A stretch of 62,123 nt of DNA from Escherichia coli (GCF_003334815.1 NZ_QOWO01000026.1); one strand, 5' to 3'; numbered from the stretch's first letter, positions 20,628-62,123 are shown. Program-made: numbers and translations. The notes: generated by a model not told the origin, from the letters alone.

Positions 20628-22361
20628 GTGAAACAACAGATACAACTTCGTCGCCGTGAAGTCGATGAAACGGCAGACTTGCCCGCTGAATTGCCTCCCT
20701 TGCTGCGCCGTTTATACGCCAGCCGGGGAGTACGCAGTGCGCAAGAACTGGAACGCAGTGTTAAAGGTATGCTGCCCTGGCAGCAACTGAGCGGCGTCGA
20801 AAAGGCCGTTGAGATCCTTTACAACGCTTTTCGCGAAGGAACGCGGATTATTGTGGTCGGTGATTTCGACGCCGACGGCGCGACCAGCACGGCTCTAAGC
20901 GTGCTGGCGATGCGCTCGCTTGGTTGCAGCAATATCGACTACCTGGTACCAAACCGTTTCGAAGACGGTTACGGCTTAAGCCCGGAAGTGGTCGATCAGG
21001 CCCATGCCCGTGGCGCGCAGTTAATTGTCACGGTGGATAACGGTATTTCCTCCCATGCGGGGGTTGAGCACGCTCGCTCGTTGGGCATCCCGGTTATTGT
21101 TACCGATCACCATTTGCCAGGCGACACATTACCCGCAGCGGAAGCGATCATTAACCCTAACTTGCGCGACTGTAATTTCCCGTCGAAATCACTGGCAGGC
21201 GTGGGTGTGGCGTTTTATCTGATGCTGGCGCTGCGCACCTTTTTGCGCGATCAGGGCTGGTTTGATGAGCGTAACATCGCAATTCCTAACCTGGCAGAAC
21301 TGCTGGATCTGGTCGCGCTGGGGACAGTGGCGGACGTCGTGCCGCTGGACGCTAATAATCGCATTCTGACCTGGCAGGGGATGAGTCGCATCCGAGCCGG
21401 AAAGTGCCGTCCGGGGATTAAAGCGCTGCTTGAAGTGGCAAACCGTGATGCACAAAAACTCGCCGCCAGCGATTTAGGTTTTGCGCTGGGGCCACGTCTC
21501 AATGCTGCCGGACGACTGGACGATATGTCCGTCGGTGTGGCGCTGTTGTTGTGCGACAACATCGGCGAAGCGCGCGTGCTGGCAAATGAACTCGATGCGC
21601 TAAACCAGACGCGAAAAGAGATCGAACAAGGAATGCAAATTGAAGCCCTGACCCTGTGCGAGAAACTGGAGCGCAGCCGTGACACGCTACCCGGCGGGCT
21701 GGCAATGTATCACCCCGAATGGCATCAGGGCGTTGTCGGTATTCTGGCTTCGCGCATCAAAGAGCGTTTTCACCGTCCGGTTATCGCGTTTGCGCCAGCA
21801 GGTGACGGTACGCTGAAAGGTTCCGGTCGCTCCATTCAGGGGCTGCATATGCGTGATGCGCTGGAGCGATTAGACACACTCTACCCTGGCATGATGCTGA
21901 AGTTTGGCGGTCATGCGATGGCGGCGGGTTTGTCGCTGGAAGAGGATAAATTCAAACTCTTTCAACAACGGTTTGGCGAACTGGTTACTGAGTGGCTGGA
22001 CCCTTCGCTATTGCAAGGCGAAGTGGTATCAGACGGTCCGTTAAGCCCGGCCGAAATGACCATGGAAGTGGCGCAGCTGCTGCGCGATGCTGGCCCGTGG
22101 GGGCAGATGTTCCCGGAGCCGCTGTTTGACGGTCATTTCCGTCTGCTGCAACAGCGGCTGGTGGGCGAACGTCATTTGAAGGTGATGGTCGAACCGGTCG
22201 GCGGCGGTCCACTGCTGGATGGTATTGCTTTTAATGTCGATACCGCCCTCTGGCCGGATAACGGCGTGCGCGAAGTGCAACTGGCTTATAAGCTCGATAT
22301 CAACGAGTTTCGCGGCAACCGCAGCCTGCAAATTATCATCGACAATATCTGGCCAATTTAG
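20628..22361 (+). CDS. recJ: Single-stranded-DNA-specific exonuclease RecJ (GTG start)
   Basis: 577 aa with DHH/DHHA1 motifs (DHH at VTDHHLP). It starts 5 nt after the dsbC stop. Confidence 0.93.
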   Translation: MKQQIQLRRREVDETADLPAELPPLLRRLYASRGVRSAQELERSVKGMLPWQQLSGVEKAVEILYNAFREGTRIIVVGDFDADGATSTALSVLAMRSLGCSNIDYLVPNRFEDGYGLSPEVVDQAHARGAQLIVTVDNGISSHAGVEHARSLGIPVIVTDHHLPGDTLPAAEAIINPNLRDCNFPSKSLAGVGVAFYLMLALRTFLRDQGWFDERNIAIPNLAELLDLVALGTVADVVPLDANNRILTWQGMSRIRAGKCRPGIKALLEVANRDAQKLAASDLGFALGPRLNAAGRLDDMSVGVALLLCDNIGEARVLANELDALNQTRKEIEQGMQIEALTLCEKLERSRDTLPGGLAMYHPEWHQGVVGILASRIKERFHRPVIAFAPAGDGTLKGSGRSIQGLHMRDALERLDTLYPGMMLKFGGHAMAAGLSLEEDKFKLFQQRFGELVTEWLDPSLLQGEVVSDGPLSPAEMTMEVAQLLRDAGPWGQMFPEPLFDGHFRLLQQRLVGERHLKVMVEPVGGGPLLDGIAFNVDTALWPDNGVREVQLAYKLDINEFRGNRSLQIIIDNIWPI

Positions 22362-22451: not shown

Positions 22452-23550
22452 ATGTTTGAAATTAATCCGGTAAATAATCGCATTCAGGACCTCACGGAAC
22501 GCTCCGACGTTCTTAGGGGGTATCTTTGACTACGACGCCAAGAAAGAGCGTCTGGAAGAAGTAAACGCCGAGCTGGAACAGCCGGATGTCTGGAACGAAC
22601 CCGAACGCGCACAGGCGCTGGGTAAAGAGCGTTCCTCCCTCGAAGCCGTTGTCGACACCCTCGACCAAATGAAACAGGGGCTGGAAGATGTTTCTGGTCT
22701 GCTGGAACTGGCTGTAGAAGCTGACGACGAAGAAACCTTTAACGAAGCCGTTGCTGAACTCGACGCCCTGGAAGAAAAACTGGCGCAGCTTGAGTTCCGC
22801 CGTATGTTCTCTGGCGAATATGACAGCGCCGACTGCTACCTCGATATTCAGGCGGGGTCTGGCGGTACGGAAGCACAGGACTGGGCGAGCATGCTTGAGC
22901 GTATGTATCTGCGCTGGGCAGAATCGCGTGGTTTCAAAACTGAAATCATCGAAGAGTCGGAAGGTGAAGTGGCGGGTATTAAATCCGTGACGATCAAAAT
23001 CTCCGGCGATTACGCTTACGGCTGGCTGCGTACAGAAACCGGCGTTCACCGCCTGGTGCGTAAAAGCCCGTTTGACTCCGGCGGTCGTCGCCACACGTCG
23101 TTCAGCTCCGCGTTTGTTTATCCGGAAGTTGATGATGATATTGATATCGAAATCAACCCGGCGGATCTGCGCATTGACGTTTATCGCGCGTCCGGCGCGG
23201 GCGGTCAGCACGTTAACCGTACCGAATCTGCGGTGCGTATTACCCACATCCCGACCGGGATCGTGACCCAGTGCCAGAACGACCGTTCCCAGCACAAGAA
23301 CAAAGATCAGGCCATGAAGCAGATGAAAGCGAAGCTTTATGAACTGGAGATGCAGAAGAAAAATGCCGAGAAACAGGCGATGGAAGATAACAAATCCGAC
23401 ATCGGCTGGGGCAGCCAGATTCGTTCTTATGTCCTTGATGACTCCCGCATTAAAGATCTGCGCACCGGGGTAGAAACCCGCAACACGCAGGCCGTGCTGG
23501 ACGGCAGCCTGGATCAATTTATCGAAGCAAGTTTGAAAGCAGGGTTATGA
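22452..23550 (+). CDS. prfB: Peptide chain release factor 2, made by a programmed +1 ribosomal frameshift. Frame 0 covers 22452-22526 (25 aa) and the +1 frame continues from 22528, giving 365 aa in total.
   Basis: ATG at 22452 ... CTT AGG GGG TAT CTT TGA C, with an in-frame UGA at 22527-22529. The +1 frame continues through the SPF and GGQ motifs (AGGQHVN) to the stop at 23550. Confidence 0.95.
22512..22530 (+). promoter_or_regulatory. prfB: prfB autoregulatory +1 frameshift site (internal SD-like AGGGGG, slippery CUU-U, UGA-C stop context)
   Basis: The exact canonical sequence cttagggggtatctttgac is present. Confidence 0.95.
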
Positions 23551-27367: not shown

Positions 27368-27802
27368 CAGTGTTTCTCCTTTCGCCCGCCAGAGTAAAAA
27401 GCAACCGTTTACGTTAATGAAACTGTCTAAACACATGCTCGTGGAGTGCCAGTTTTTGCGAGGAAGGGGAGTTAGAGACAGGAATTGCGGAGGCAATCAC
27501 ATAATCGTGGTTAAACCACGAAAATGAGAATAGAACCTGACAATGGAATTATCTGTAATTTTCTCATATTGATATTTCATTAATCATTCTGGCATGTCGC
27601 ACTCTCGCATTTAATCGTTTTTATCTGGATAGCGCTCTTTTGATCGGCAATGTTGAAATAATGAAAGCGGCATAGATTGAGGGGCAATAATTTGAACTCA
27701 GTCGCAAAATTATAATTAAAACGGTCATGCTACCTAATATATGCCCGTTTATTGCATCGCGAAATTTGAGAAGACATAACTCATTAAATGAAAGGGATGC
27801 AA

Positions 27803-29722
27803 ATGAATAAGTTTATTGCTGCTGAAGCTGCGGAATGTATAGGCTGTCATGCTTGTGAAATTGCCTGTGCGGTGGCACACAATCAAGAAAACTGGCCGCT
27901 GAGTCACAGTGACTTTCGACCGCGTATCCACGTTGTAGGGAAAGGCCAGGCTGCGAATCCGGTGGCCTGCCATCACTGCAACAATGCCCCTTGCGTTACG
28001 GCTTGTCCGGTTAATGCTCTGACTTTCCAGTCCGATAGCGTACAACTGGACGAGCAAAAATGTATTGGTTGTAAAAGATGCGCAATCGCTTGCCCCTTTG
28101 GCGTCGTTGAGATGGTCGATACGATTGCGCAGAAATGCGACCTTTGTAACCAGCGCAGTTCCGGCACGCAAGCCTGTATTGAAGTTTGCCCAACACAGGC
28201 GTTACGACTGATGGACGATAAAGGGTTGCAGCAGATAAAGGTGGCCCGCCAGCGCAAAACGGCAGCAGGAAAAGCGTCATCAGACGCTCAGCCATCTCGC
28301 AGTGCAGCGTTGCTCCCCGTTAACTCGCGTAAAGGCGCAGATAAAATTTCAGCGAGTGAACGGAAAACCCACTTTGGCGAAATATATTGCGGGCTGGATC
28401 CACAACAAGCGACTTATGAGAGTGACCGCTGTGTTTATTGTGCCGAAAAAGCTAACTGCAACTGGCATTGCCCGCTGCATAACGCTATTCCGGATTACAT
28501 CCGTCTGGTACAGGAAGGAAAGATTATTGAAGCGGCAGAACTTTGCCACCAGACCAGTTCCTTACCAGAAATTTGCGGCAGGGTATGTCCACAGGACCGT
28601 CTTTGTGAAGGCGCATGTACTTTGAAAGATCACTCGGGCGCAGTCTCTATCGGTAATCTGGAACGCTACATCACCGATACCGCGCTGGCGATGGGCTGGC
28701 GTCCCGATGTCAGCAAAGTTGTTCCCCGTAGCGAAAAAGTGGCGGTGATTGGCGCTGGGCCTGCAGGGTTAGGGTGTGCTGATATTCTGGCGCGCGCAGG
28801 AGTTCAGGTCGATGTCTTTGATCGCCATCCAGAAATTGGCGGTATGCTGACTTTTGGCATTCCTCCTTTCAAACTCGATAAAACGGTATTAAGCCAGCGG
28901 CGAGAGATATTCACCGCAATGGGAATCGACTTTCATCTTAACTGTGAAATTGGCCGCGATATTACCTTTAGCGATTTAACTTCTGAATATGATGCAGTTT
29001 TCATCGGCGTGGGGACTTACGGGATGATGCGAGCAGATCTGCCGCATGAAGATGCGCCCGGTGTCATTCAGGCTCTACCGTTCCTGACTGCCCATACCCG
29101 CCAGCTCATGGGATTGCCGGAGTCTGAAGAGTATCCGCTGACGGACGTGGAAGGTAAGCGAGTCGTGGTATTGGGCGGTGGCGATACGACAATGGATTGT
29201 TTGCGGACTTCCATCCGCCTCAATGCCGCCAGCGTGACCTGCGCGTATCGTCGTGATGAAGTCAGTATGCCGGGCTCGCGCAAAGAGGTGGTTAATGCGC
29301 GCGAGGAAGGTGTCGAGTTTCAGTTCAATGTTCAACCGCAATATATCGCTTGTGACGAAGATGGGCGTTTAACTGCGGTGGGCCTGATTCGTACCGCCAT
29401 GGGTGAGCCGGGGCCGGATGGTCGCCGTCGTCCTCGTCCGGTAGCGGGTTCAGAGTTTGAATTGCCCGCCGATGTTCTGATTATGGCCTTTGGTTTCCAG
29501 GCGCATGCCATGCCGTGGTTGCAGGGCAGCGGAATTAAACTCGATAAATGGGGCCTGATTCAAACCGGTGACGTCGGGTATTTACCTACCCAGACGCATC
29601 TGAAAAAAGTCTTTGCTGGTGGTGATGCAGTTCATGGCGCGGATCTGGTTGTCACTGCAATGGCCGCAGGAAGGCAGGCGGCGCGCGATATGTTAACTCT
29701 GTTTGATACGAAGGCATCGTGA
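27803..29722 (+). CDS. ygfT: Fused 4Fe-4S ferredoxin / NAD(P)H-dependent oxidoreductase, like the glutamate synthase small subunit
   Basis: 639 aa from [15 protein letters not shown]. Multiple CxxCxxCxxxCP clusters are followed by the GAGPAG and GGGDTAMD dinucleotide-binding motifs. Confidence 0.88.
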
Positions 29723-30210
29723 TGAAATCGTTAATTATCGTTAATCCGGCTGACTGTATTGGCTGCCGTACTTGTGAAGTAGCCTGTGTGGTCGCTCACC
29801 CTTCAGAACAGGAGTTGAATGCCGATGTCTTTTTACCCCGGCTGAAGGTACAGCGACTGGACAGCATCAGTGCGCCGGTGATGTGCCATCAGTGTGAAAA
29901 CGCCCCTTGTGTTGGCGCTTGCCCCGTGGGGGCGCTGACGATGGGCGAGCAGGTGGTGCAGACCAATTCTGCCCGTTGTATTGGCTGTCAGAGTTGCGTC
30001 AGTGCGTGCCCGTTTGGAATGATCACCATTCAGTCGTTGCCGGGGGATACCCGACAACAAATTGTGAAATGCGATCTCTGTGAACAGCGGGAAGAGGGGC
30101 CAGCCTGCGTTGAATCTTGCCCAACACAGGCGCTGCAGTTGCTTACTGAAAGAGAACTCAGGCGAGTCCGCCAGCAGCGTATTGTTGCCAGCGGTGAGAA
30201 TCCTCTCTGA
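29722..30210 (+). CDS. ygfS: 4Fe-4S ferredoxin-type protein
   Basis: 162 aa with four CxxCxxCxxxCP-like motifs. Its start overlaps the ygfT stop (ATGA). Confidence 0.88.
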
Positions 30211-30216
30211 AAGAAA

Positions 30217-30240
30217 TCTCCGCGCTGAAAGGCGCGGAGA
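30217..30240. terminator. Bidirectional Rho-independent terminator between convergent ygfS and ghxQ
   Basis: tctccgcgc-tgaaa-ggcgcggaga forms a perfect hairpin. Confidence 0.75.
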
Positions 30241-30245
30241 ATCTA

Positions 30246-31613
30246 TTAGATTGCCCAACCACCCGCGTAAAATGCGACCAGTGCGGCAGTAATGATCACC
30301 GTACCAATATTCAGCTTTTGCCATTCGCGTGCAAAGACGCGGCCTACGACCAGTGTCACAAAGCCCAGCATAATACCGGTAACGATATTACAAGTCAGAA
30401 CGATGAACACGGCACACACCAGGCCAGCCATAGCGTCAATAAAATCATTGAAATCCAGCTTCGAGACGTTACTTAACATCAGCAAACCTACGTACATCAG
30501 AGCGGGTGCAGTGGCGTAACCAGGGATCAAAAATGACAGCGGTGATAAAAACAGAATTAACAGGAATAACGCCCCCACTACGGTTGCGGTTAAACCTGTT
30601 TTACCCCCGGCGGCGGTTCCTGCCGCTGATTCGATATAAACCGCTGCGGGCGCTGCGCCCACCAGGCCGGAGAATATTGAACTTACTGAGTCACTGGTCA
30701 GGGCTTTGCCGCCGTTGATGATCTGGTTGTCTTTATCCAACAAATTCGCCTGACCGGCGACGGCACGGATGGTGCCAGTAGCGTCGAACACTGCGGTCAT
30801 CACCAATGCCAGTACACTCGGAAGTACAGTTGGCTGGAGTGCACCCATAATATCGAGGCTGAAAATCAGAGACTTACCATCTTCGCCAGTCAGGCTTGGC
30901 ATCGCCACCAGACCGTGGTATTTCACCGCTGGGTCAAAGATTAAGCCGATGATCGAAATTGCAATAATCACCAACAAGATCCCGCCGGGTACGCGACACT
31001 TCTCCAGGCCGAAGATGACCGCCAGCCCCAGCAAGCTCATCATCACCGGGAAGGAGGTAAACGCACCGAGCGCCACTGGCAAGCCTTCAATCGGGTTTTT
31101 GATAACCATACCCACACCGTTAGCAGCAATCAGCAGCAGAAACAGCCCGATACCGATACCTGTACCGTGAGCGATACCCATCGGCAAATTACGTAAGATC
31201 CAGGTACGCACACCGGTTACGGAAATGGCGGTGAAGATGACGCCCATCAGAAATACCGCGCCCAGTGCGACAGGAACGCTAATTTGTTGCCCGAGTACCA
31301 GACTGAATGCGGTAAACGCCGTCAAGGAAATCGCGCAACCAATCGCCATTGGCAAATTAGCCCATAATCCCATCAGCAACGAGCCGAAGCCCGCGACCAG
31401 ACAGGTGGCAACAAACACAGCTGCGGGAGGAAAACCTGCTTTGCCCAGCATTCCCGGAACGACGATAACGGAATAAACCATGGCCAGAAAGGTCGTTAAG
31501 CCAGCCAGTACTTCCTGACGAACGGTACTGCCACGAGCGGTAATTTTAAAATAATTATCCAGCGCGCCCTGTGGCTTTGGTGCGTCCGGTGTTTGTAGGA
31601 TGTCTCCAGACAT
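30246..31613 (-). CDS. ghxQ: Guanine/hypoxanthine permease (AzgA-like NCS2)
   Basis: 455-aa polytopic membrane protein. It is intact here, not split as in the older K-12 ygfQ/ygfR annotation. Confidence 0.85.
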
Positions 31614-31648
31614 AATGATGTCCTCACGAGGATGTTAAAGTTTTATTA

Positions 31649-32968
31649 TTAGTTGCGTTCGTACACCAGACGACCATCAACGTAGGTGCGGTAGATCGAA
31701 CGGTCATCGCCCAACGTCATCATCACGAACAATTTGTCGACTAAAGAAACAGAGTTGTCATAGCGCAGCTGCTGTAGCGGAGTGGCGGTGGGTTCCATCA
31801 CCACGAAATCAGCCTCTTTGCCAGGTAAAAAGTTGCCAATCAAATCGTCAAGGCCCAGAGATTTCGCTCCGCCGAGCGTGGCCAGGTAAAACGCTTCATA
31901 TGCCGAGAGGCGATAGCCTTGTAATTGCAATACTTTGTAGGCTTCGTTCAGCGTTTGCAGCATGTTGAAAGTGGTTCCGGCACCGATATCCGTTCCCATG
32001 CCCACTTTAACTTTCTTCTGCCATGCTTTTTTCAAGTTGAATAAGCCGCTGCCGAGGTAAAGGTTGGAGGTCGGACAGAAAGCAATGCTGGATTTGGTTT
32101 CGCTGAGACGATCCCACTCTTTTTCTTCGAGATGGACGCAGTGAGCAAAGACACAGTTTTTACCGGTCAGGCCGTACTGATGGTAAACATCCAGATAACC
32201 ATCATGGTCAGGATAAAGCGATTTCACCCAGGCAATTTCATCTTTGTTTTCACAGAGATGGGTATGTACCCACGTATCCGGATATTCTTCTTTCAGGCGT
32301 TGCGCCATCGCCATCTGTTCAGGAGATGAGGTCGGGGCGAAGCGTGGCGTAATCGCATATAGCAGACGACCATTTTTGTGCCAGCGTTCGATCAGTTCTT
32401 TGCTTTGGTGATAGCTGCTTTCGGCAGTGTCGAGCAGATAATCCGGTGCGTTGCGGTCCATCATCACCTTACCGGCAATCATACGCATATTGATATGACT
32501 GGCGGCTTCAAACAGCGCATCAACAGATTGCGGATGAACAGTGCCAAACACCAGCGCCGTGGTGGTTCCGTTACGTAAAAGCTGCTTGATGAAGAACGCC
32601 GACATTTCGCGGGCGTACTCTAAATCCTCATAACGACGTTCAGTAGGGAAGGTGTGTTTATTCAACCACTCCAGCAATTGCTCACCATAGGCCCCCACCA
32701 TTTCACTTTGCGGATAATGGATATGTGTATCGACAAAGCCCGGTACTATCAGTTTGCCGCGATAGTCGCGCACGCGAATGGTGTCAGGAATTTGATGCTT
32801 TCCGTTTTCCCATTCGCCAAACCATTCCACTTTTCCCTGTTTAATGAGTAATAAACCATCCTCAATAAACCGCAGCGCAGAGGCAATCTCTTCCGGGTTA
32901 TCGATCGTACGGGTGACATCAATAAAACTGCCTCGTACCGCTTTTAACGTGTGTTCTCCTGACATCAT
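31649..32968 (-). CDS. guaD: Guanine deaminase
   Basis: 439 aa from MMSGEHTLKAV, an amidohydrolase with the HTHL and HCVH motifs. The ORF track adds a 40-codon extension. Confidence 0.9.
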   Translation of the reverse strand: MMSGEHTLKAVRGSFIDVTRTIDNPEEIASALRFIEDGLLLIKQGKVEWFGEWENGKHQIPDTIRVRDYRGKLIVPGFVDTHIHYPQSEMVGAYGEQLLEWLNKHTFPTERRYEDLEYAREMSAFFIKQLLRNGTTTALVFGTVHPQSVDALFEAASHINMRMIAGKVMMDRNAPDYLLDTAESSYHQSKELIERWHKNGRLLYAITPRFAPTSSPEQMAMAQRLKEEYPDTWVHTHLCENKDEIAWVKSLYPDHDGYLDVYHQYGLTGKNCVFAHCVHLEEKEWDRLSETKSSIAFCPTSNLYLGSGLFNLKKAWQKKVKVGMGTDIGAGTTFNMLQTLNEAYKVLQLQGYRLSAYEAFYLATLGGAKSLGLDDLIGNFLPGKEADFVVMEPTATPLQQLRYDNSVSLVDKLFVMMTLGDDRSIYRTYVDGRLVYERN

Positions 32969-32982
32969 TGACTCCTTTACTG

Positions 32983-34383
32983 TTAATCCATCTCTTCCGC
33001 TGAGGTAATACCAGGCAGAACGTTTTCCTGTCGGTAGCCACCAGGGAGGATAATATTTAATAAAATCGCAGTTAACCCGCCAGCACAAATAGGGTTTTCA
33101 ACTAATACATAAATAGAGGCTGGCAATATTTTAAAAATTTCGGGATCGTAGGAGACGCCAAGCCCTAAACCTAAAGAAGTGGCGACAATAAGTGTTTCAC
33201 GGCGCTTTAAACCGTTGGTGATGATGATGCGAATCCCTGCGATGGCAATCATGGAAAACATCAACGTCATTGCGCCTCCCAGAACTGCCGAGGGAATGGT
33301 CGTGAAGAAGCCGCCAATCATCGGAAATAAGCCGAGGATAACCAGCATTACCGCGATGGTTCGCCCGACATAACGTGAAGCGACGCCAGTCATCTGAATA
33401 ACCCCATTATTTTGCGCAAACGTGGTTAATGGTAATGAACCGACAGCGGAGGCGATAACAGAAACCAGACCATCTGCCAGCACGCCGCCTTTCAGCCGGG
33501 ACTGATACTCTTCCCCCTGAATGGGGCGGCGGGAAACCATTGCCGTGGCGGTGATATCGCCGACTGCTTCCAGCACGCTAAGCAGATAAATCGTGCCAAC
33601 CACCAGGAACTGATGGAAGCTAAAACTAAAGCCGTATTTGAACGGATGCGGGATGGTGATTAACGGCAAATTGCGCATACTGCTGAAATCCACCATGCCC
33701 AGGCATAACGATGCGATATAGCCGACACATAGCCCAATGGCGATCCCTCCCATGCGTAGCAACGGACTGCGACAGCAGTTAAAGCCGATCACCACAATTA
33801 AAACCAATAAACCAACGCCGAGATGTTCGTAATTGCCGAACGTACCGCTGCTTTTGGCTGCAAATCCTCCACCAAAATCGATAATGCCGACTTTAATCAG
33901 GCTTAAGCCGATCATCAGTACCACAATACCGCTGACGGTAGGCGTAATAACCCGACGTAAATAGGGCAAGATAAATGAAGATCCGACAACCAGAAATGCG
34001 CCAACGAAGGAGACGCCGAGAAGCGACGACATGATTAACTCTTCGTGAAAACCGTCGCTTTTCATGCTGCTGCCCAGCGCAATCATGACCGTAACAAATG
34101 AAAAATTGACTGACTGAATTGAGAGTAGGCCAGAACCGACGATGCCGTAGCGGTTTACTTGTAACCAGGTACCAATACCAGAGGCGATCATCGCCATAGA
34201 AACAAGATAGGCAGTTGTTTCAGCGGAAAGCTGTAAGGCCGCACCCACGATTAACGCGGGGGTTACCATCGGAACGAAAATTGCCAACAGATGGGTAATG
34301 GCACCAACGAGAGCCTGATGAAAGGGAGGGCGATCCTCCAGTTCAAATATAAGGTCAGAACCTGCATGGTTTATATCAGACAT
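32983..34383 (-). CDS. xanQ: Xanthine permease (NCS2)
   Basis: 466 aa from MSDINHAGSDLIFELEDRPPFHQ. Confidence 0.9.
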   Translation of the reverse strand: MSDINHAGSDLIFELEDRPPFHQALVGAITHLLAIFVPMVTPALIVGAALQLSAETTAYLVSMAMIASGIGTWLQVNRYGIVGSGLLSIQSVNFSFVTVMIALGSSMKSDGFHEELIMSSLLGVSFVGAFLVVGSSFILPYLRRVITPTVSGIVVLMIGLSLIKVGIIDFGGGFAAKSSGTFGNYEHLGVGLLVLIVVIGFNCCRSPLLRMGGIAIGLCVGYIASLCLGMVDFSSMRNLPLITIPHPFKYGFSFSFHQFLVVGTIYLLSVLEAVGDITATAMVSRRPIQGEEYQSRLKGGVLADGLVSVIASAVGSLPLTTFAQNNGVIQMTGVASRYVGRTIAVMLVILGLFPMIGGFFTTIPSAVLGGAMTLMFSMIAIAGIRIIITNGLKRRETLIVATSLGLGLGVSYDPEIFKILPASIYVLVENPICAGGLTAILLNIILPGGYRQENVLPGITSAEEMD

Positions 34384-34507
34384 CCCTTCACTCCTTTTAA
34401 AGTAAATTTGATCATCTGAATTAGTAAAATAAATTCCCACGAATTTGGGGCGCAGGACGCCTTGAGAACGGCTTATCTCATTTTCGCAGTCACTATTTAG
34501 TCATCGT

Positions 34508-34539
34508 TCAAACAGAGAAACAGGCCGCCGAAGCGGCCA
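34508..34539 (-). terminator. Rho-independent terminator after xdhD
   Basis: On the minus strand, a ggccgcttcggcggcc hairpin is followed by tgtttctctgttt. Confidence 0.65.
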
Positions 34540-34547
34540 TTTATTAT

Positions 34548-59675: not shown

Positions 59676-59750
59676 AGCGGGCGTAGTTCAATGGTAGAAC
59701 GAGAGCTTCCCAAGCTCTATACGAGGGTTCGATTCCCTTCGCCCGCTCCA
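59676..59750 (+). tRNA. glyU: tRNA-Gly (anticodon CCC)
   Basis: GCGGGCG acceptor stem, cuUCCCAag anticodon loop, GGTTCGATTCC T-arm, CGCCCGC-T-CCA 3' end. Confidence 0.92.
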
Positions 59751-59864
59751 TGACACTTCTTAAAGTATTCCAACTTACTGAATCCTAAGGGATATGGCTT
59801 AACGCCTCCTTGCAGAGTTACTTACTGTAACCCACTGTGTAACCCTCTCAGGGCATACAGACAT

Positions 59865-61511
59865 ATGATTCAGCTATCCAGCAGTCACAAACTTCCAGCC
59901 GTCTCCTATCTCTACCAGCGTAACGGCGTCTACTACTTCCGTCTTCGGGTCAGACAATCAAACAATGATAGAATGACCTCAATATCATTACGGACCAAGG
60001 ATAGACGCACCGCTATGGCTCACTCAAGGCACATCAAGGCAGCACTCAAGGCAATACACGCAGACAGACCCAACGCTACCTATGAGGAAATGAGGGAGCA
60101 CCTTAAGGACATCGCTGAGTGTGAACTGTCTATGGGCCGTTCAGATCTCTTTGAGCCTGACATGAGGGATATCTACCGGGACCAATACGGAGAACTTGGT
60201 GAGAGCCTTACCGATGCTCTGGCTAGTGAGCCGCTAAGTATTGACCAGCATCGTTACATCAATGAGGCCCTGAAGGTGCTAAAAGCCTGCATGAGGCGTA
60301 TCGAAGCGGGAGACAGTCAGCCTCTGATAGATTACGTCGATCATTTTAATGATATTGATAGGCAAGATAGCCAAGTAGCCTCTGTGTCCCTATCTGTTAA
60401 TGCTCCAGAAGTAAAACCAGAAGTAAAACCAGAAGTAAAACTAGAAGTAAAACCAGAAGTTACGCCTAGCATTACCATAGCGAGCCTCTTTGAGCAATAC
60501 GAAGCGGAGAATTATCAGAACTGGAAGCCTGCAACCTTAAGGGAAAACAAGGCGTCACACGCTGCGTTAATCGAAATATTCGACCATCTGGGTCTCAATG
60601 CAGACGCTAACAGGGCTGACATGCTTAAGGTCCGTGATGTGCTCCAGCAGTTACCTAGGAACCGTAAGCAGCGCTTCAAGGATGCCCCACTTGCTGACCT
60701 GTTGAGCCGTGAAGATAAGACAGATTGTCTGGATGTCGTTACCATCAACAACAAGTATCTTATTAAGATGGCTGCTGTCTTTAGGTGGGCTGTGCGCAAT
60801 GACTTGATTAAAAAGAACATGACTGAGGGTCTGGAGCTTAAAGTCCCTCAGCGTAAAGCCTCAGGGGCCCGTAACGCCTTCTCTACGGAGCAGGTGGGGC
60901 AACTACTGGTCGCAGCTAAGGCATACTCTCAGAAGACCTCTGGTAAGCCCTACCACTATTACGTTACGGCTTTGGCTGCTATCACTGGGGCGAGACTCAA
61001 TGAAATAGCCCAACTACAGGTCAAAGACGTCAGGACCACTGAGGCGGGAACCGTTTATATTCATATCAATGAAGACGATAGTAGTCTACCCGGTAAGAGC
61101 ATCAAGAACGCTCATAGTGACCGCTGTGTGCCTCTGGTCGATGGGGCCTATGGTTTTATATTGGCTGACTTTATGAGGTTGGTTGAGACCCGTAGAGGCG
61201 CTGATGGTGATGACGCTATGGTGTTCGATGGTCTTCGCCTCATGAAGAACGGTTACGGTGAGCAGGTGAGTAAATGGTTTAATCGGACGTTGTTGCCTAA
61301 AGTCCTCGCAGATCGTAGCGGCTTAGCGTTTCACTCGTTTAGACATACAGTTGCGACCCAGTTAAAACAACATGGGGTCGAGTTGGCGTATGCACAGGCG
61401 ATCATGGGGCATAGTTCAGGGTCTATTACTTACGACCGTTATGCTAAAGAGGTTGAGGTTGATAGGCTGGTCAATGTGATGGCTGATGTTTATAAGGAGA
61501 TTGTGGGGTAA
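59865..61511 (+). CDS. Tyrosine-type integrase of a genomic island inserted next to tRNA-Gly (N-terminal arm-type domain, PEVK-repeat linker, C-terminal catalytic domain)
   Basis: 548 aa. The N-terminus (SYLYQRNGVYYFRLRV) is typical of island/phage integrase arm-binding domains. The C-terminus has R (TGARLNE), HSFRHT and Y (ITYDRYAK) catalytic motifs. It starts 115 nt after the tRNA 3' end. Confidence 0.85.
   Translation: MIQLSSSHKLPAVSYLYQRNGVYYFRLRVRQSNNDRMTSISLRTKDRRTAMAHSRHIKAALKAIHADRPNATYEEMREHLKDIAECELSMGRSDLFEPDMRDIYRDQYGELGESLTDALASEPLSIDQHRYINEALKVLKACMRRIEAGDSQPLIDYVDHFNDIDRQDSQVASVSLSVNAPEVKPEVKPEVKLEVKPEVTPSITIASLFEQYEAENYQNWKPATLRENKASHAALIEIFDHLGLNADANRADMLKVRDVLQQLPRNRKQRFKDAPLADLLSREDKTDCLDVVTINNKYLIKMAAVFRWAVRNDLIKKNMTEGLELKVPQRKASGARNAFSTEQVGQLLVAAKAYSQKTSGKPYHYYVTALAAITGARLNEIAQLQVKDVRTTEAGTVYIHINEDDSSLPGKSIKNAHSDRCVPLVDGAYGFILADFMRLVETRRGADGDDAMVFDGLRLMKNGYGEQVSKWFNRTLLPKVLADRSGLAFHSFRHTVATQLKQHGVELAYAQAIMGHSSGSITYDRYAKEVEVDRLVNVMADVYKEIVG
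60405..60461 (+). repeat. Intragenic 12-bp tandem repeat (ccagaagtaaaa, about 4.75 copies) encoding (PEVK)n in the integrase
   Basis: ccagaagtaaaaccagaagtaaaaccagaagtaaaactagaagtaaaaccagaagtt. Confidence 0.9.
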
Positions 61512-61631
61512 CCAAGCTGTCCACCCCCGGGGAGATTTGCCTTGAGGATGACCATAGTCGATGACCATATTGCTACAGGCCTGTGTGGTCATGTTTTTGA
61601 CTCACGGTTTTCACTACTTGTCAAGGATTTC

Positions 61632-61654
61632 TAATACGACTCACTATAGAGAGA
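61632..61654 (+). promoter_or_regulatory. Near-consensus bacteriophage T7 RNA polymerase promoter (copy 1): TAATACGACTCACTATAG|AGAGA, with predicted +1 G at 61649
   Basis: Positions -17 to +1 match the T7 consensus TAATACGACTCACTATAG at 18 of 18. The +2 to +6 region is AGAGA against consensus GGAGA. The specificity positions -12 to -8 are T7-like (CGACT), not T3-like or SP6-like. Confidence 0.7.
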
Positions 61655-61769
61655 AGGGACACAAAAAGTTTTCTCTCTTTCTCTCTCTTCTAGGACACTT
61701 GCTACTACTACTACAGGCCTGTGTGGTCATGTTTTTGACTCACAGTTTTCACTACTTGTCAAGGATTTC

Positions 61770-61792
61770 TAATGCGACTCACTATAGAGAGA
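61770..61792 (+). promoter_or_regulatory. T7-type promoter (copy 2): TAATGCGACTCACTATAG|AGAGA, with predicted +1 G at 61787
   Basis: This is the second copy of the tandem repeat. It differs from copy 1 by a single mismatch, A to G at -13. Confidence 0.6.
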
Positions 61793-61858
61793 AGGGACAC
61801 AAAAAGTTTTCTCTCTTTCTCTCTCTTCTAGGACACTTGCTACTACTACTACAGGTAG

Positions 61859-61888
61859 CTCTAACTCTAACTCTAACTCTAACTCTAA
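61859..61888 (+). repeat. Hexanucleotide microsatellite (CTCTAA)5, followed by a degenerate ccgtaa unit; (TAC)4 lies just upstream in each 138-bp unit
   Basis: ctctaactctaactctaactctaactctaa. Confidence 0.9.
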
Positions 61889-62046
61889 CCGTAACTTATC
61901 GCATCCTTTCAGGGGCGGGATGACCAATTACAGACACCAAGCGTTCTACTTAAAGTGAATGCTTCCTGTGTGCTCTGGGTCAGTCGATAAGTGAATAGCA
62001 ATAGACATCATATTAAATATGGTCTCTACCCTACAGGGGCTTAACT

Positions 62047-62123
62047 CTGATGAATCCCCTAATGATTTTGGTAAAAATCATTAAGTTAAGGTGGATACAC
62101 ATCTTGTCATATGATCAAATGGT
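62047..62123 (+). mobile_element. Terminal 77 bp of an IS10 end (IS4 family, Tn10-type). The element continues beyond the window.
   Basis: ctgatgaatcccctaatgattttggtaaaaatcattaagttaaggtggatacacatcttgtcatatgatcaaatggt matches, from memory, the IS10 outside-end sequence that precedes the transposase start. The 9 bp immediately before it (ggcttaact) resemble the IS10 target consensus NGCTNAGCN. Confidence 0.7.

Follow-up and report, generated by a model that had tools for sequence, protein, structure and literature searches.

A miniature integrative element at glyU of Escherichia coli carrying T7-type promoters, and its possible relationship to T7-like phages

The last 2.4 kb of the DNA analysed here (the window: 62,123 nt of one strand of Escherichia coli, GCF_003334815.1 NZ_QOWO01000026.1) form the left part of a miniature integrative element that sits at glyU and is, in this lineage, reduced to an integrase and a cis-acting module. 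The reading favoured here, with some reserve, is that the family to which this element belongs consists of satellites, or at least molecular parasites, of T7-like (Autographiviridae) virulent phages, acting by the mechanism proposed below. The family is apparently undescribed; no description of these elements was found in the literature outside subscription-only papers, and no Rfam family matched inside the islands.

The element abuts tRNA-Gly(CCC), glyU (59677–59750, + strand), the sole tRNA called by ARAGORN in the window. The last 23 nt of this gene (59728–59750, + strand), TTCGATTCCCTTCGCCCGCTCCA, form the attL core, of which 17–23 nt are repeated as attR in relatives. The integrase ORF (59865–61511, + strand; 548 aa) starts 114 nt past the end of glyU and matches Pfam Phage_integrase (PF00589, E=2e-18) and the PHROG_1 integrase (E=2e-45), with an additional DUF6538 match just below the 27-bit cut-off (25.8 bits, E=8e-6). 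Its catalytic residues R377, H490, R493, H516 and Y526 are invariant among 14 homologues and give the R...HxxR...H...Y arrangement of tyrosine recombinases. An in-frame 12-nt tandem repeat, (PEVK)n, read from the sequence at 60405–60461 (+ strand), lies in the integrase linker; its copy number differs among relatives, as in the 544-aa integrase of locus L001. The tRNA, the 548-aa integrase, the T7-promoter repeats and the IS10 end named in the original prediction were all recovered where it had placed them. As it had also claimed, no second glyU 3′ end is present in the window (17-mer search, up to 2 mismatches), which supports its view that the element continues past the window end. An attR repeat of 17–23 nt is present in 9 of the first 22 loci and in 4 later loci including L031. 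The original placing of this sequence at the attL (left) boundary of an element that is integrated at glyU and specific to the strain is supported.

The closest relative, L031 (GCA_018427835.1), has an identical integrase and 99.6 % DNA identity over 10 kb, and lacks the IS10. Its attR lies ~650 nt beyond the position of the IS10 in the window, so that the whole element measures 2.84 kb and comprises the integrase, promoters, conserved core, A+T-rich tract and attR, with no ORF besides the integrase; the yge/ETT2 genes come after attR, with ygeQ and ETT2 intact. The glyU site of K-12 is empty, the tRNA gene being followed directly by ygeQ and ETT2 remnants, and this comparison bears out what had been said of the K-12 flank. 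Two further claims of the original prediction fared less well. The island had been thought to replace the ETT2 context; ygeQ and ETT2 genes follow attR in every relative in which attR was found, and with these genes intact the element therefore replaces nothing. Cargo had been thought to lie unseen beyond the window; given the gene content of L031, it is very probably absent from this element.

Immediately 3′ of the integrase, a 138-nt unit is tandemly duplicated (61568–61705 and 61706–61843, + strand; copies 97 % identical), each copy holding one T7-type promoter. Scored against the 23 bp T7 class III promoter consensus (TAATACGACTCACTATAGGGAGA, −17 to +6), promoter 1, TAATACGACTCACTATAGAGAGA (61632–61654, + strand), matches at 22/23 positions (1 mismatch) and promoter 2, TAATGCGACTCACTATAGAGAGA (61770–61792, + strand), at 21/23 (2 mismatches); no match to the consensus arose in 100 shuffles (0/100). 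The variant bases of the two sites are +2 A and −13 G. Both sites are of T7 class III type, and initiation by T7 RNA polymerase is predicted at them. Promoter 1 has its predicted +1 G at 61649 and shares the initiation sequence GAG with T7 phi1.1A. These repeats, correctly reported as present in the original prediction, were mentioned there only in passing and turn out to be the key feature of the element.

A repeat search located a (TAACTC)n microsatellite at 61856–61897 (+ strand), and alignment delimited a conserved non-coding block 3′ of the promoters at 61886–62046 (+ strand). Across 12 loci from 6 genera this block has 42 invariant columns; its 58-nt core (61886–61943), TAACCGTAACTTATCGCATCCTTTCAGGGGCGGGATGACCAATTACAGACACCAAGCG, is a candidate cis-acting site for origin or packaging function. 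A conserved RNA structure for the core was rejected, the RNAalifold fold being weak and without compensatory pairs, and a hairpin drawn by hand (CATCC/GGATG, or TTTCC/GGAAA in Proteus) is not claimed, as it reflects a single lineage split only. Exact copies of a 27-mer from the core were found on 23 contigs from metagenomes and 3 from IMG/VR. The order on these 26 contigs is attL to attR, or tandem with another island; every junction on them is of the attL or attR type, none is attP, and several of the contigs include no junction. Likewise, the attP 38-mer was not found in JGI metagenome contigs or IMG/VR. Three island-sized contigs were considered as excised circles. L023 and L026 were rejected, both being chromosomal fragments, and L028 ends at de Bruijn branch points and shows only that an empty site or attP co-existed in the sample.

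The terminal 77 nt (62047–62123, + strand) are an IS10 end, and the window stops inside this insertion sequence; L031 agrees with the window as far as 62046, beyond which it continues with no insertion. Positions 62048–62123 are 100 % identical to sequence on >2000 plasmids including R100, which carries Tn10, and the window end has the IS10 terminal sequence (CTGATGAATCCCCTAATGATTTT...). The insertion point coincides with the exact start of the A+T-rich origin-like tract in relatives. This copy is defective in several respects: the integrase is its only gene, its promoters deviate from the consensus, and IS10 splits them from the A+T tract. Because of that separation the copy is probably inert. 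IS elements cut other copies of the family too.

Related elements of 4.1–6.5 kb are located at glyU in ~6.7 % of complete E. coli genomes (integrases in 365/5426); this frequency, together with the empty K-12 site, agrees with the earlier expectation that the integrase is accessory and not core. The family extends to at least a dozen further Enterobacterales genera, including Klebsiella, Serratia, Yersinia, Pectobacterium and Proteus, and across ~12 genera integrase identity stays at 80 % or more. An E. coli copy and that of Klebsiella pneumoniae ATCC 13883 share 94.5 % identity over 6.4 kb, whereas their flanks are ~72 % identical or unalignable. Between the 17–23 nt att repeats the elements measure 4146–6447 bp (2.8–6.5 kb for the family with L031 included), with a tight class at 6.16–6.45 kb. 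The tightness of this class despite variable gene content suggests a packaging constraint.

Every related element has promoters of the phage single-subunit RNA-polymerase kind shortly 3′ of its integrase. With up to 1 mismatch allowed, 38 promoter cores were counted in 25 loci within 2 kb 3′ of the integrase, each of them on the + (coding) strand; none were found in the other 430 kb of these loci, scanned on both strands. The 23/23 promoters of relatives are identical to T7 phi6.5, phi9, phi10, phi13, phi17 and phiOR. At the sequence level promoter specificity tracks the host, being of T7 type in E. coli and of K11 type in Klebsiella. Promoters of the E. coli type match mainly Escherichia phages of the T7 group (140/183 records), and the Klebsiella island promoter, AATTAGGGCACACTATAGGGAGA, is found in Klebsiella phages in 161 of the 173 matching records, at ~10 sites per genome. 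The Proteus island promoter shares a 30-nt identity with promoters of ICP3/N4-type T7-like phages, which have 12–15 such sites per genome. In some islands, T7-type and K11-type promoters share an array with promoters of a third type.

In relatives the tandem promoters are followed, on the same strand, by a tract of 146–231 nt that is 70–78 % A+T. T7 likewise has same-strand tandem promoters followed by an A+T tract at its primary origin (phi1.1A and phi1.1B) and at phiOL, its secondary origin. The island arrangement differs in its spacing, with ~230 nt, holding the conserved 58-nt core, between promoter and A+T tract as against ~20 nt in T7, and in its tract, which is longer and repetitive. 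It also differs in its setting, since the T7 origin resides in a phage genome and its counterpart in a chromosomal island, where origin function is predicted from sequence. The 7-mers of the tract fit T7 best at 226–500 (the phiOL region) and 5826–6125 (the primary origin), with 25–30 7-mers in common where the genome-wide average is 2.4 (sd 3). Dinucleotide shuffles of the tract had 12–18 7-mers in common with T7 against the 26–30 observed, and for L001, one of three loci tested, the shuffle maximum of 37 exceeded the observed 26; the similarity thus appears real and partly compositional. When element non-coding DNA was compared with 50,697 phage records, the only non-promoter BLAST match was the gene 1/gene 1.1 intergenic region of a Teseptimavirus, the position of the primary origin; this match, to Tarrare, was weak (E=3e-3). 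Plasmids with a cloned T7 origin reportedly replicate in T7-infected cells and, when they carry the concatemer junction, are said to be packaged. As a separate observation, not used as evidence, L001 has arrays with the T7 primase pentamers GGGTC and TGGTC.

Elements of the 6.4-kb class add a Rha/KilA-N protein, DUF6971 and an HK97-fold capsid protein, and often RAZR (PD-T7-4). The DUF6971 protein is identical to PDB 5EUR (SF216), and a fold search returned solely its own crystal structure. The capsid-like protein (gene family F3), present in relatives only, has the HK97 fold in its predicted model. This model has a mean pLDDT of 70 and its top structural matches are encapsulin-like shells, not phage capsids, so that identification as a capsid protein carries moderate confidence. 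By sequence it matches nothing in PDB, Pfam or NCBIfam, has no detectable similarity to T7 gp10 (hhalign) and no homologue in 50,697 phage genomes (tblastn); in IMG/VR it appears on one provirus-type contig only. At most loci a hairpin and T-run come after its stop codon. Of packaging machinery, neither a terminase nor a portal nor a recognisable pac site was found in the elements.

RAZR/PD-T7-4 was detected in 9/19 islands (L004 and 8 others; E=2e-102), in a slot that adjoins the integrase and lies upstream of the phage promoters; other occupants of the slot are Bro-N or HEPN-like proteins. RAZR, which combines a zinc finger with DUF4145 (HEPN), is not in the window, where the promoters come straight after the integrase. 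PD-T7-4 is a validated anti-T7 abortive-infection protein (PMC9519451; PMC13017515), and RAZR senses the T7 portal gp8 and is expressed from its own promoter (PMC13017515). RAZR/PD-T7-4 as described in those papers has the same genomic neighbourhood as the family, the window element being without it; the phage promoters, origin-like tract and capsid-fold gene around RAZR go unmentioned there (PMC9519451; PMC13017515).

The family has the general make-up of satellites, at 2.8–6.5 kb with an integrase, at most one capsid-fold gene and helper-type promoters. The anatomy, the identity of the promoters and its change with the host, the capsid fold, the att repeats and the near-identical copies in different genera are observed directly; beyond them we infer a cycle of promoter use, origin function, excision, packaging and phage interference. 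In an uninfected cell the element would be quiet, because few sigma-70-like sites lie ahead of its late genes. On infection, the phage RNA polymerase would recognize the element promoters, which are matched to the phages of that host genus, and transcription into the 70–78 % A+T tract could make this tract serve the phage replisome as an origin, in the manner of the T7 primary origin. The same transcripts would run through a conserved 5′-UTR hairpin, express the Rha/KilA-N/ANT-type DNA-binding protein, a 58–76 aa protein, DUF6971 and the HK97-fold capsid protein, and stop at a Tphi-like hairpin. The integrase would excise the element and re-integrate it at the tRNA-Gly(CCC) 3′ end, and the capsid protein may build or remodel capsids as carriers of the element. 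In the many members that have RAZR (PD-T7-4), this protein would abort the infection on sensing the phage portal. T7 degrades host DNA fast, and a chromosomal satellite would need to outrun this degradation.

The most serious competing explanation is a defence island triggered by phage polymerase rather than a transmissible satellite. The promoters would then sense infection and turn on genes that interfere with the phage, namely those for the DNA-binding protein and for a decoy capsid or an encapsulin-like shell by which assembly is poisoned. In a variant, the promoter/origin module would itself be the decoy, diverting phage RNA polymerase and replisome. Spread would be by ordinary horizontal transfer and would not involve packaging in the helper. 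The presence of RAZR/PD-T7-4, the validated anti-T7 protein (PMC9519451; PMC13017515), beside the integrase in 9/19 islands, the Bro-N or HEPN-like alternatives in that slot and the encapsulin shells among the best fold matches all suit such an island, as do the lack of a terminase or pac site in the elements and of attP or virome evidence in the searches made; even the cargo-less form in the window could still work as a decoy. Against it stand the position of RAZR upstream of the phage promoters and its expression from its own promoter (PMC13017515), the tight 6.16–6.45 kb class with its variable genes, and the near-identical copies at the same tRNA in different genera. Taken jointly, these variants are considered unlikely, though well worth keeping in view. 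Satellites typically combine parasitism and defence, and this explanation therefore overlaps the satellite reading.

Two other explanations are highly improbable. The elements could be decaying remnants of a once-integrated T7-like temperate phage, with promoters and A+T tract as functionless leftovers; the T7 type of both, the visible loss of genes and gain of IS10 in the window lineage and the IS elements that interrupt further copies would fit. Yet no RNA polymerase, DNA polymerase, portal or tail gene remnants were found in 25 loci, the capsid-like protein has no sequence relationship with T7 gp10 or with any of the phage genomes searched, and a dozen genera have in common the gene order, the intact att repeats and the narrow range of sizes. 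The promoters, moreover, are kept at 0–1 mismatch and track host-specific phage types; neutral decay would not preserve such a match. Just as little credence is given to an ordinary tRNA-linked island whose large unseen cargo replaces the ETT2 region and whose T7-like sequences are incidental. The window does end inside IS10 ahead of any attR, and glyU can host tandem islands (L001 has a second island of ~10 kb, and L055 has another). Against this, the promoter sites are far above chance and position- and strand-specific, ETT2 is kept after attR in all relatives, and L031, with its identical integrase, reaches attR ~650 nt past the IS10 site and then resumes yge/ETT2; by the refuting condition set in the original prediction, a large island with cargo therefore fails for the window lineage.

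Phages of the T7 type are textbook examples of virulent phages and find wide use in phage therapy and biotechnology. If the satellite reading is true, it could account for some of the resistance that bacteria naturally show to T7-like therapeutic phages, a route of gene transfer would exist via phages thought to be non-transducing, and RAZR would gain an ecological context. It would also be a very economical parasitism, in which helper promoters and origin are copied and no machinery is encoded. Perfect T7 promoters in natural isolates matter for T7-based expression or diagnostics in wild strains. Island-bearing strains are available from culture collections (NCTC10973, ATCC 13883), making the hypothesis directly testable; the island of NCTC10973 is of a 4.2-kb class with a perfect T7 promoter, and that of E. 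coli 51008369SK1 is of the 6.4-kb class with T7 and K11 promoters.

To our knowledge, T7-like phages have no known satellites. A bolder version of the satellite reading, about which doubt slightly outweighs belief, is that the glyU elements are the first satellites of T7-like phages and the smallest to encode a capsid (6.4 kb), plugging into the helper by copied promoters and a copied primary origin and accompanied by RAZR. Such elements would do without replication or transcription genes, and their set of promoter types (T7, K11 or others, at times several to an array) would define the helper range. The classical satellites PLE of Vibrio cholerae and P4 of E. coli, at 11–18 kb, encode replication initiators or primases themselves, together with dedicated regulators, and we know of no use of helper RNA-polymerase promoters as a switch by either. 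Both are integrative, activated by a specific helper, and combine their own spread with blocking of the helper, as is proposed for the glyU elements. These elements are half the size of P4, and none of its markers (alpha primase, sid, psu, delta, cos) was found in them. Searches with Pfam, PHROGs, NCBIfam and PADLOC, each covering a subset of the island proteins, also detected none of the PICI/cf-PICI markers (AlpA/Stl, primase-replicase, terS, portal, protease, connectors). The cf-PICIs exceed the glyU elements in size by far; they specify a complete module for capsid and packaging and take only the tails from their temperate helpers. The glyU elements, in contrast, appear to be wired to virulent T7-like phages and differ from cf-PICI (EcCI2, PDB 9GYI) and from the capsid-size redirector Ccm of SaPIbov5 in having one capsid-fold gene in a 6.4-kb element.

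PICMIs (phage-inducible chromosomal minimalist islands) carry, among others, Fis, AlpA and primase genes and no capsid gene, and we know of no report of phage-RNA-polymerase promoters or a phage-type origin in them. The glyU elements have neither primase nor AlpA and, unlike PICMIs, include in their 6.4-kb class an HK97-fold protein of their own; their hosts are Enterobacterales, whereas those of PICMIs are Vibrionaceae. PICMIs are packaged as concatemers (PMC10803314). In being very small, integrase-bearing and gene-poor, and in exploiting virulent phages as is suggested here, PICMI of the Vibrionaceae (PMC10803314) and the glyU elements are alike.

The window contains a single tRNA gene, the tRNA-Gly(CCC) gene glyU (59677–59750, + strand; ARAGORN), which lies downstream of xdhA and ygeR/actS, as it does in K-12. 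An ORF of 548 aa starting 114 nt after the tRNA (59865–61511, + strand) encodes a tyrosine integrase (Pfam Phage_integrase, E=2e-18; PHROG_1, E=2e-45), the catalytic R, HxxR, H and Y of which show no variation among homologues. The linker of this integrase encodes (PEVK)n through an in-frame 12 nt tandem repeat, CCAGAAGTAAAA (60405–60461), present in ~4.75 copies here and in fewer copies in relatives (544 aa), and is a linker of variable length within a recombinase. Downstream, a 138 nt unit is tandemly duplicated (61568–61843), and each copy carries one 23 nt match to the T7 class III promoter. TAATACGACTCACTATAGAGAGA, at 61632, has 1 mismatch to it and TAATGCGACTCACTATAGAGAGA, at 61770, has 2; 100 shuffles of the window gave 0 such matches. 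A (TAACTC)n hexanucleotide microsatellite (61856–61897), whose length differs between relatives, separates the promoter duplication from the conserved core, and a block conserved across genera extends from 61886 to 62046. An IS10 end occupies 62047 to the window end; the window, probably a contig, thus stops within IS10 in the manner typical of a short-read assembly break. The insertion point, after GCTTAAC and before T (62040–62047), is similar to GCTNAGC, the target sequence that IS10 prefers. The tRNA 3′ end was not found a second time within the window. In its structural description (tRNA, integrase, T7-promoter repeats, IS10 end and no attR in the window), the original prediction was accurate in every detail.

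The closest relative, L031 (public assembly GCA_018427835.1), encodes an identical 548 aa integrase, shares 99.6 % DNA identity with the window over its final 10 kb as far as base 62046, and lacks IS10. Past the IS10 point, the next ~650 nt of L031 comprise TTAAAG-type repeats in an A+T-rich array, the palindrome GGTGATGATATTTATAACAATCAATCACC and attR, a 23 nt direct repeat of the glyU 3′ end. The whole element is 2836 bp, with the integrase as its sole gene, and behind attR are ygeQ-like ORFs and the ETT2 type III secretion genes. The window had been predicted to hold the left edge of an island with unseen cargo that replaces the ETT2-remnant context of K-12. Judging from L031, such cargo is most probably absent, and ETT2 has not been replaced. 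In comparison with 4.2 kb relatives, the L031/window lineage has lost ~1.3 kb, a segment comprising a third promoter together with a KilA-N gene and a gene for 157 aa. The window copy is a degenerate family member, without cargo and cut by IS10. It is probably also defective, as IS10 splits the promoters from the A+T tract.

Of 5426 complete E. coli genomes, 365 have a related integrase (≥80 % nucleotide identity) at glyU, in every case on the chromosome; the K-12 site is empty. The promoter and core module of the window type is present in 91 genomes. Integrase protein homologues of 80–96 % identity occur in Shigella, Citrobacter, Klebsiella, Raoultella, Serratia, Yersinia, Cedecea and Lonsdalea, and a one-genome-per-species scan added Pectobacterium, Rouxiella, Buttiauxella, Shimwellia, Kluyvera, Proteus and Edaphovirga. 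Where a contig includes both ends, the elements are bounded by 17–23 nt repeats of the tRNA 3′ end and measure 4146, 4182, 6160, 6288, 6403, 6435 or 6447 bp; copies with an IS are larger. Gene order is conserved: the integrase, a variable slot, a non-coding region of 0.7–1.3 kb, a variable DNA-binding gene (Rha, KilA-N or ANT domains), a 58–76 aa protein, DUF6971, a 326–402 aa protein (family F3) and attR. The 4.2 kb class is without the last three genes. Copies from an E. coli dog isolate and K. pneumoniae ATCC 13883 are 94.5 % identical across the full 6.4 kb, whereas their flanks are ~72 % identical or unalignable, indicating recent inter-genus transfer.

Several islands can share glyU. In locus L001, an unrelated island of ~10 kb (27583–37657), with a 650 aa integrase and a third att copy at 37641, lies in tandem behind the mini-island, and in the metagenome contig L055 (1–6113) a different island lies upstream of it. 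The first base of the 6512 nt contig L028 (Logan SRR8759048) lies exactly 30 nt ahead of the island, and the contig stops 7 nt past attR. Branch points at k=31 would fall at these positions if the sample contained, besides the occupied site, an empty glyU site or an attP circle.

The defining feature of the family is its phage promoters. Among 25 loci, the conserved 13 nt core CACTATAGGGAGA (≤1 mismatch) matches 38 times within 2 kb 3′ of the integrase, always on the coding strand, and not once on either strand of the other 430 kb; five loci without such a site carry variants with ≥2 mismatches. Several E. coli islands contain perfect 23/23 T7 promoters, identical to phi6.5, phi9, phi10, phi13, phi17 and phiOR. 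The upstream, specificity-determining part differs by host: the K. pneumoniae ATCC 13883 island has two copies of AATTAGGGCACACTATAGGGAGA together with one exact T7 promoter and another variant, the Proteus island has AATTAACCCACACTATAGGGAGA and the Pectobacterium island AATTAACTATCACTATTGGGAGA. In the island type shared by ATCC 13883 and the dog isolate, the four phage promoters represent three specificities: two are of K11 type, one is an exact T7 promoter and one is AATTAGGTAGCACTATAGGGAGA (L006 10265–10841, L034 10377–10954). When 50 697 phage genomes were searched, E. coli-type promoters matched Escherichia T7-group phages in 140 of 183 records, and Klebsiella-type promoters matched Klebsiella phages in 161 of 173, at ~10 sites per genome. 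The Proteus-type promoter shows 30 nt identity to promoters of the T7-like vibriophages ICP3 and N4 (12–15 per genome). By these host-wise matches, the island sequences are real T7-like phage promoter types that correspond to the phages of the local population. Relics evolving neutrally would not be kept in this way. A scan of one island showed no enrichment of sigma-70-like sites (3 versus 6.6 ± 3 in shuffles).

In the islands, 1–4 phage promoters on one strand are followed by a tract of 70–78 % A+T. The 7-mers that this tract has in common with T7 fall preferentially at 226–500 (phiOL; phiOL and phiOR are the T7 secondary origins) and 5826–6125 (primary origin), with 25–30 shared against a genome-wide mean of 2.4 (sd 3); dinucleotide shuffles of the tract already share 12–18, so the signal is partly compositional. 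The sole non-promoter BLAST match of island non-coding DNA to phage records is a weak one (E=3e-3) to Teseptimavirus Tarrare, with stretches AATTAGAGATT...TAAGAGG in common. It falls in the intergenic region that separates gene 1, encoding the RNA polymerase, from gene 1.1, which is where the primary origin lies. The spacer of ~230 nt between promoters and tract includes a 58 nt core, nearly invariant from E. coli to Edaphovirga and recognizable in Proteus, to which neither a structure nor an Rfam family could be assigned. This core is regarded as the best candidate for a cis-acting origin or packaging site. In L001, tandem arrays (CCTGTGTGGTC)n and (CTAGGGTCTCT)n (21950–22020 and 22640–22770) flank the promoters and A+T tract; TGGTC and GGGTC, pentamers recognized by the T7 primase, occur within them. 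Another array, (CTCAGTTTTGAGC)n, is mirrored within the Rha gene.

Immediately upstream of the first late gene, whatever its family, is a conserved 5′ UTR of ~95 nt with a long predicted hairpin of 30 predicted pairs (L006 11247–11345, L020 10937–11046 and nine other loci). Many one-sided changes from G-U to A-U or G-C point to structure at the RNA level. The hairpin matched no Rfam family and may serve RNase III-type processing or the control of translation. DUF6971 (L001 25446–25856 and homologues) is identical to a crystallized Shigella flexneri M90T protein, 'hypothetical protein SF216' (PDB 5EUR), which consists of two long helices and a small alpha/beta domain. A solved structure thus exists for this mobile-element protein, whose context seems not to have been recognized so far. 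The F3 protein has only ~50 homologues, all in Enterobacterales, and matched nothing in Pfam, NCBIfam or PDB sequences. Its AlphaFold model (pLDDT 70) has a predicted HK97 capsid fold, with structural matches to the P. furiosus virus-like particle (12.4), encapsulins (10.1), T4 gp24 (9.8), HK97 gp5 (9.2), the cf-PICI EcCI2 head protein (9.1) and SaPIbov5 Ccm (7.4). No sequence relation was found to T7 gp10 or to any genome of the phage collection.

The variable slot encodes RAZR/DUF4145 in 9 of 19 loci, and a Bro-N protein, another small gene or nothing in the others; the window element lacks RAZR. In L004 and eight other loci the gene adjoining the integrase is PD-T7-4 (PADLOC, E=2e-102), now named RAZR, an abortive-infection RNase activated on assembling around the T7 portal gp8 (PMC13017515).

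The family is rated as phage satellites or phage-inducible islands, and is read most economically as a parasite of T7-like phages. The analysis shows the anatomy, the statistics, the fold and the distribution; each dynamic step is inferred. Phage RNA polymerase would switch the element on, the mimicked origin would let the phage replisome copy it, and the integrase would insert it into tRNA-Gly(CCC) and release it again. A container may be supplied or remodelled by the capsid-fold protein, in which DUF6971 perhaps takes part, and the helper would be harmed by RAZR and by competition for phage machinery. A packaging constraint fits the narrow 6.16–6.45 kb size range, kept despite variable gene content. 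Descent from a decayed T7-like prophage would also account for phage promoters, but is unlikely given the absence of polymerase, portal or tail gene remnants and the conservation of promoters in host-matched form. The main rival is that the phage polymerase triggers a defence island which is not itself transmissible, or that the element acts as a decoy replicon; in part it coincides with the satellite reading. Searches of the elements found no terminase or pac site, and neither attP junctions nor virome enrichment were found.

A full-text literature search, with subscription-only literature outside its reach, found no description of such elements, and the texts of PMC9519451 and PMC13017515 make no mention of the phage promoters, origin-like tract or capsid-fold gene. 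At most loci a strong hairpin and T-run 3′ of the F3 stop codon recall the gene 10-Tphi arrangement of T7. In the T7 primary origin, two tandem promoters, phi1.1A and phi1.1B, precede an A+T-rich region; the islands follow the same logic, with promoters on one strand and then A+T-rich DNA.
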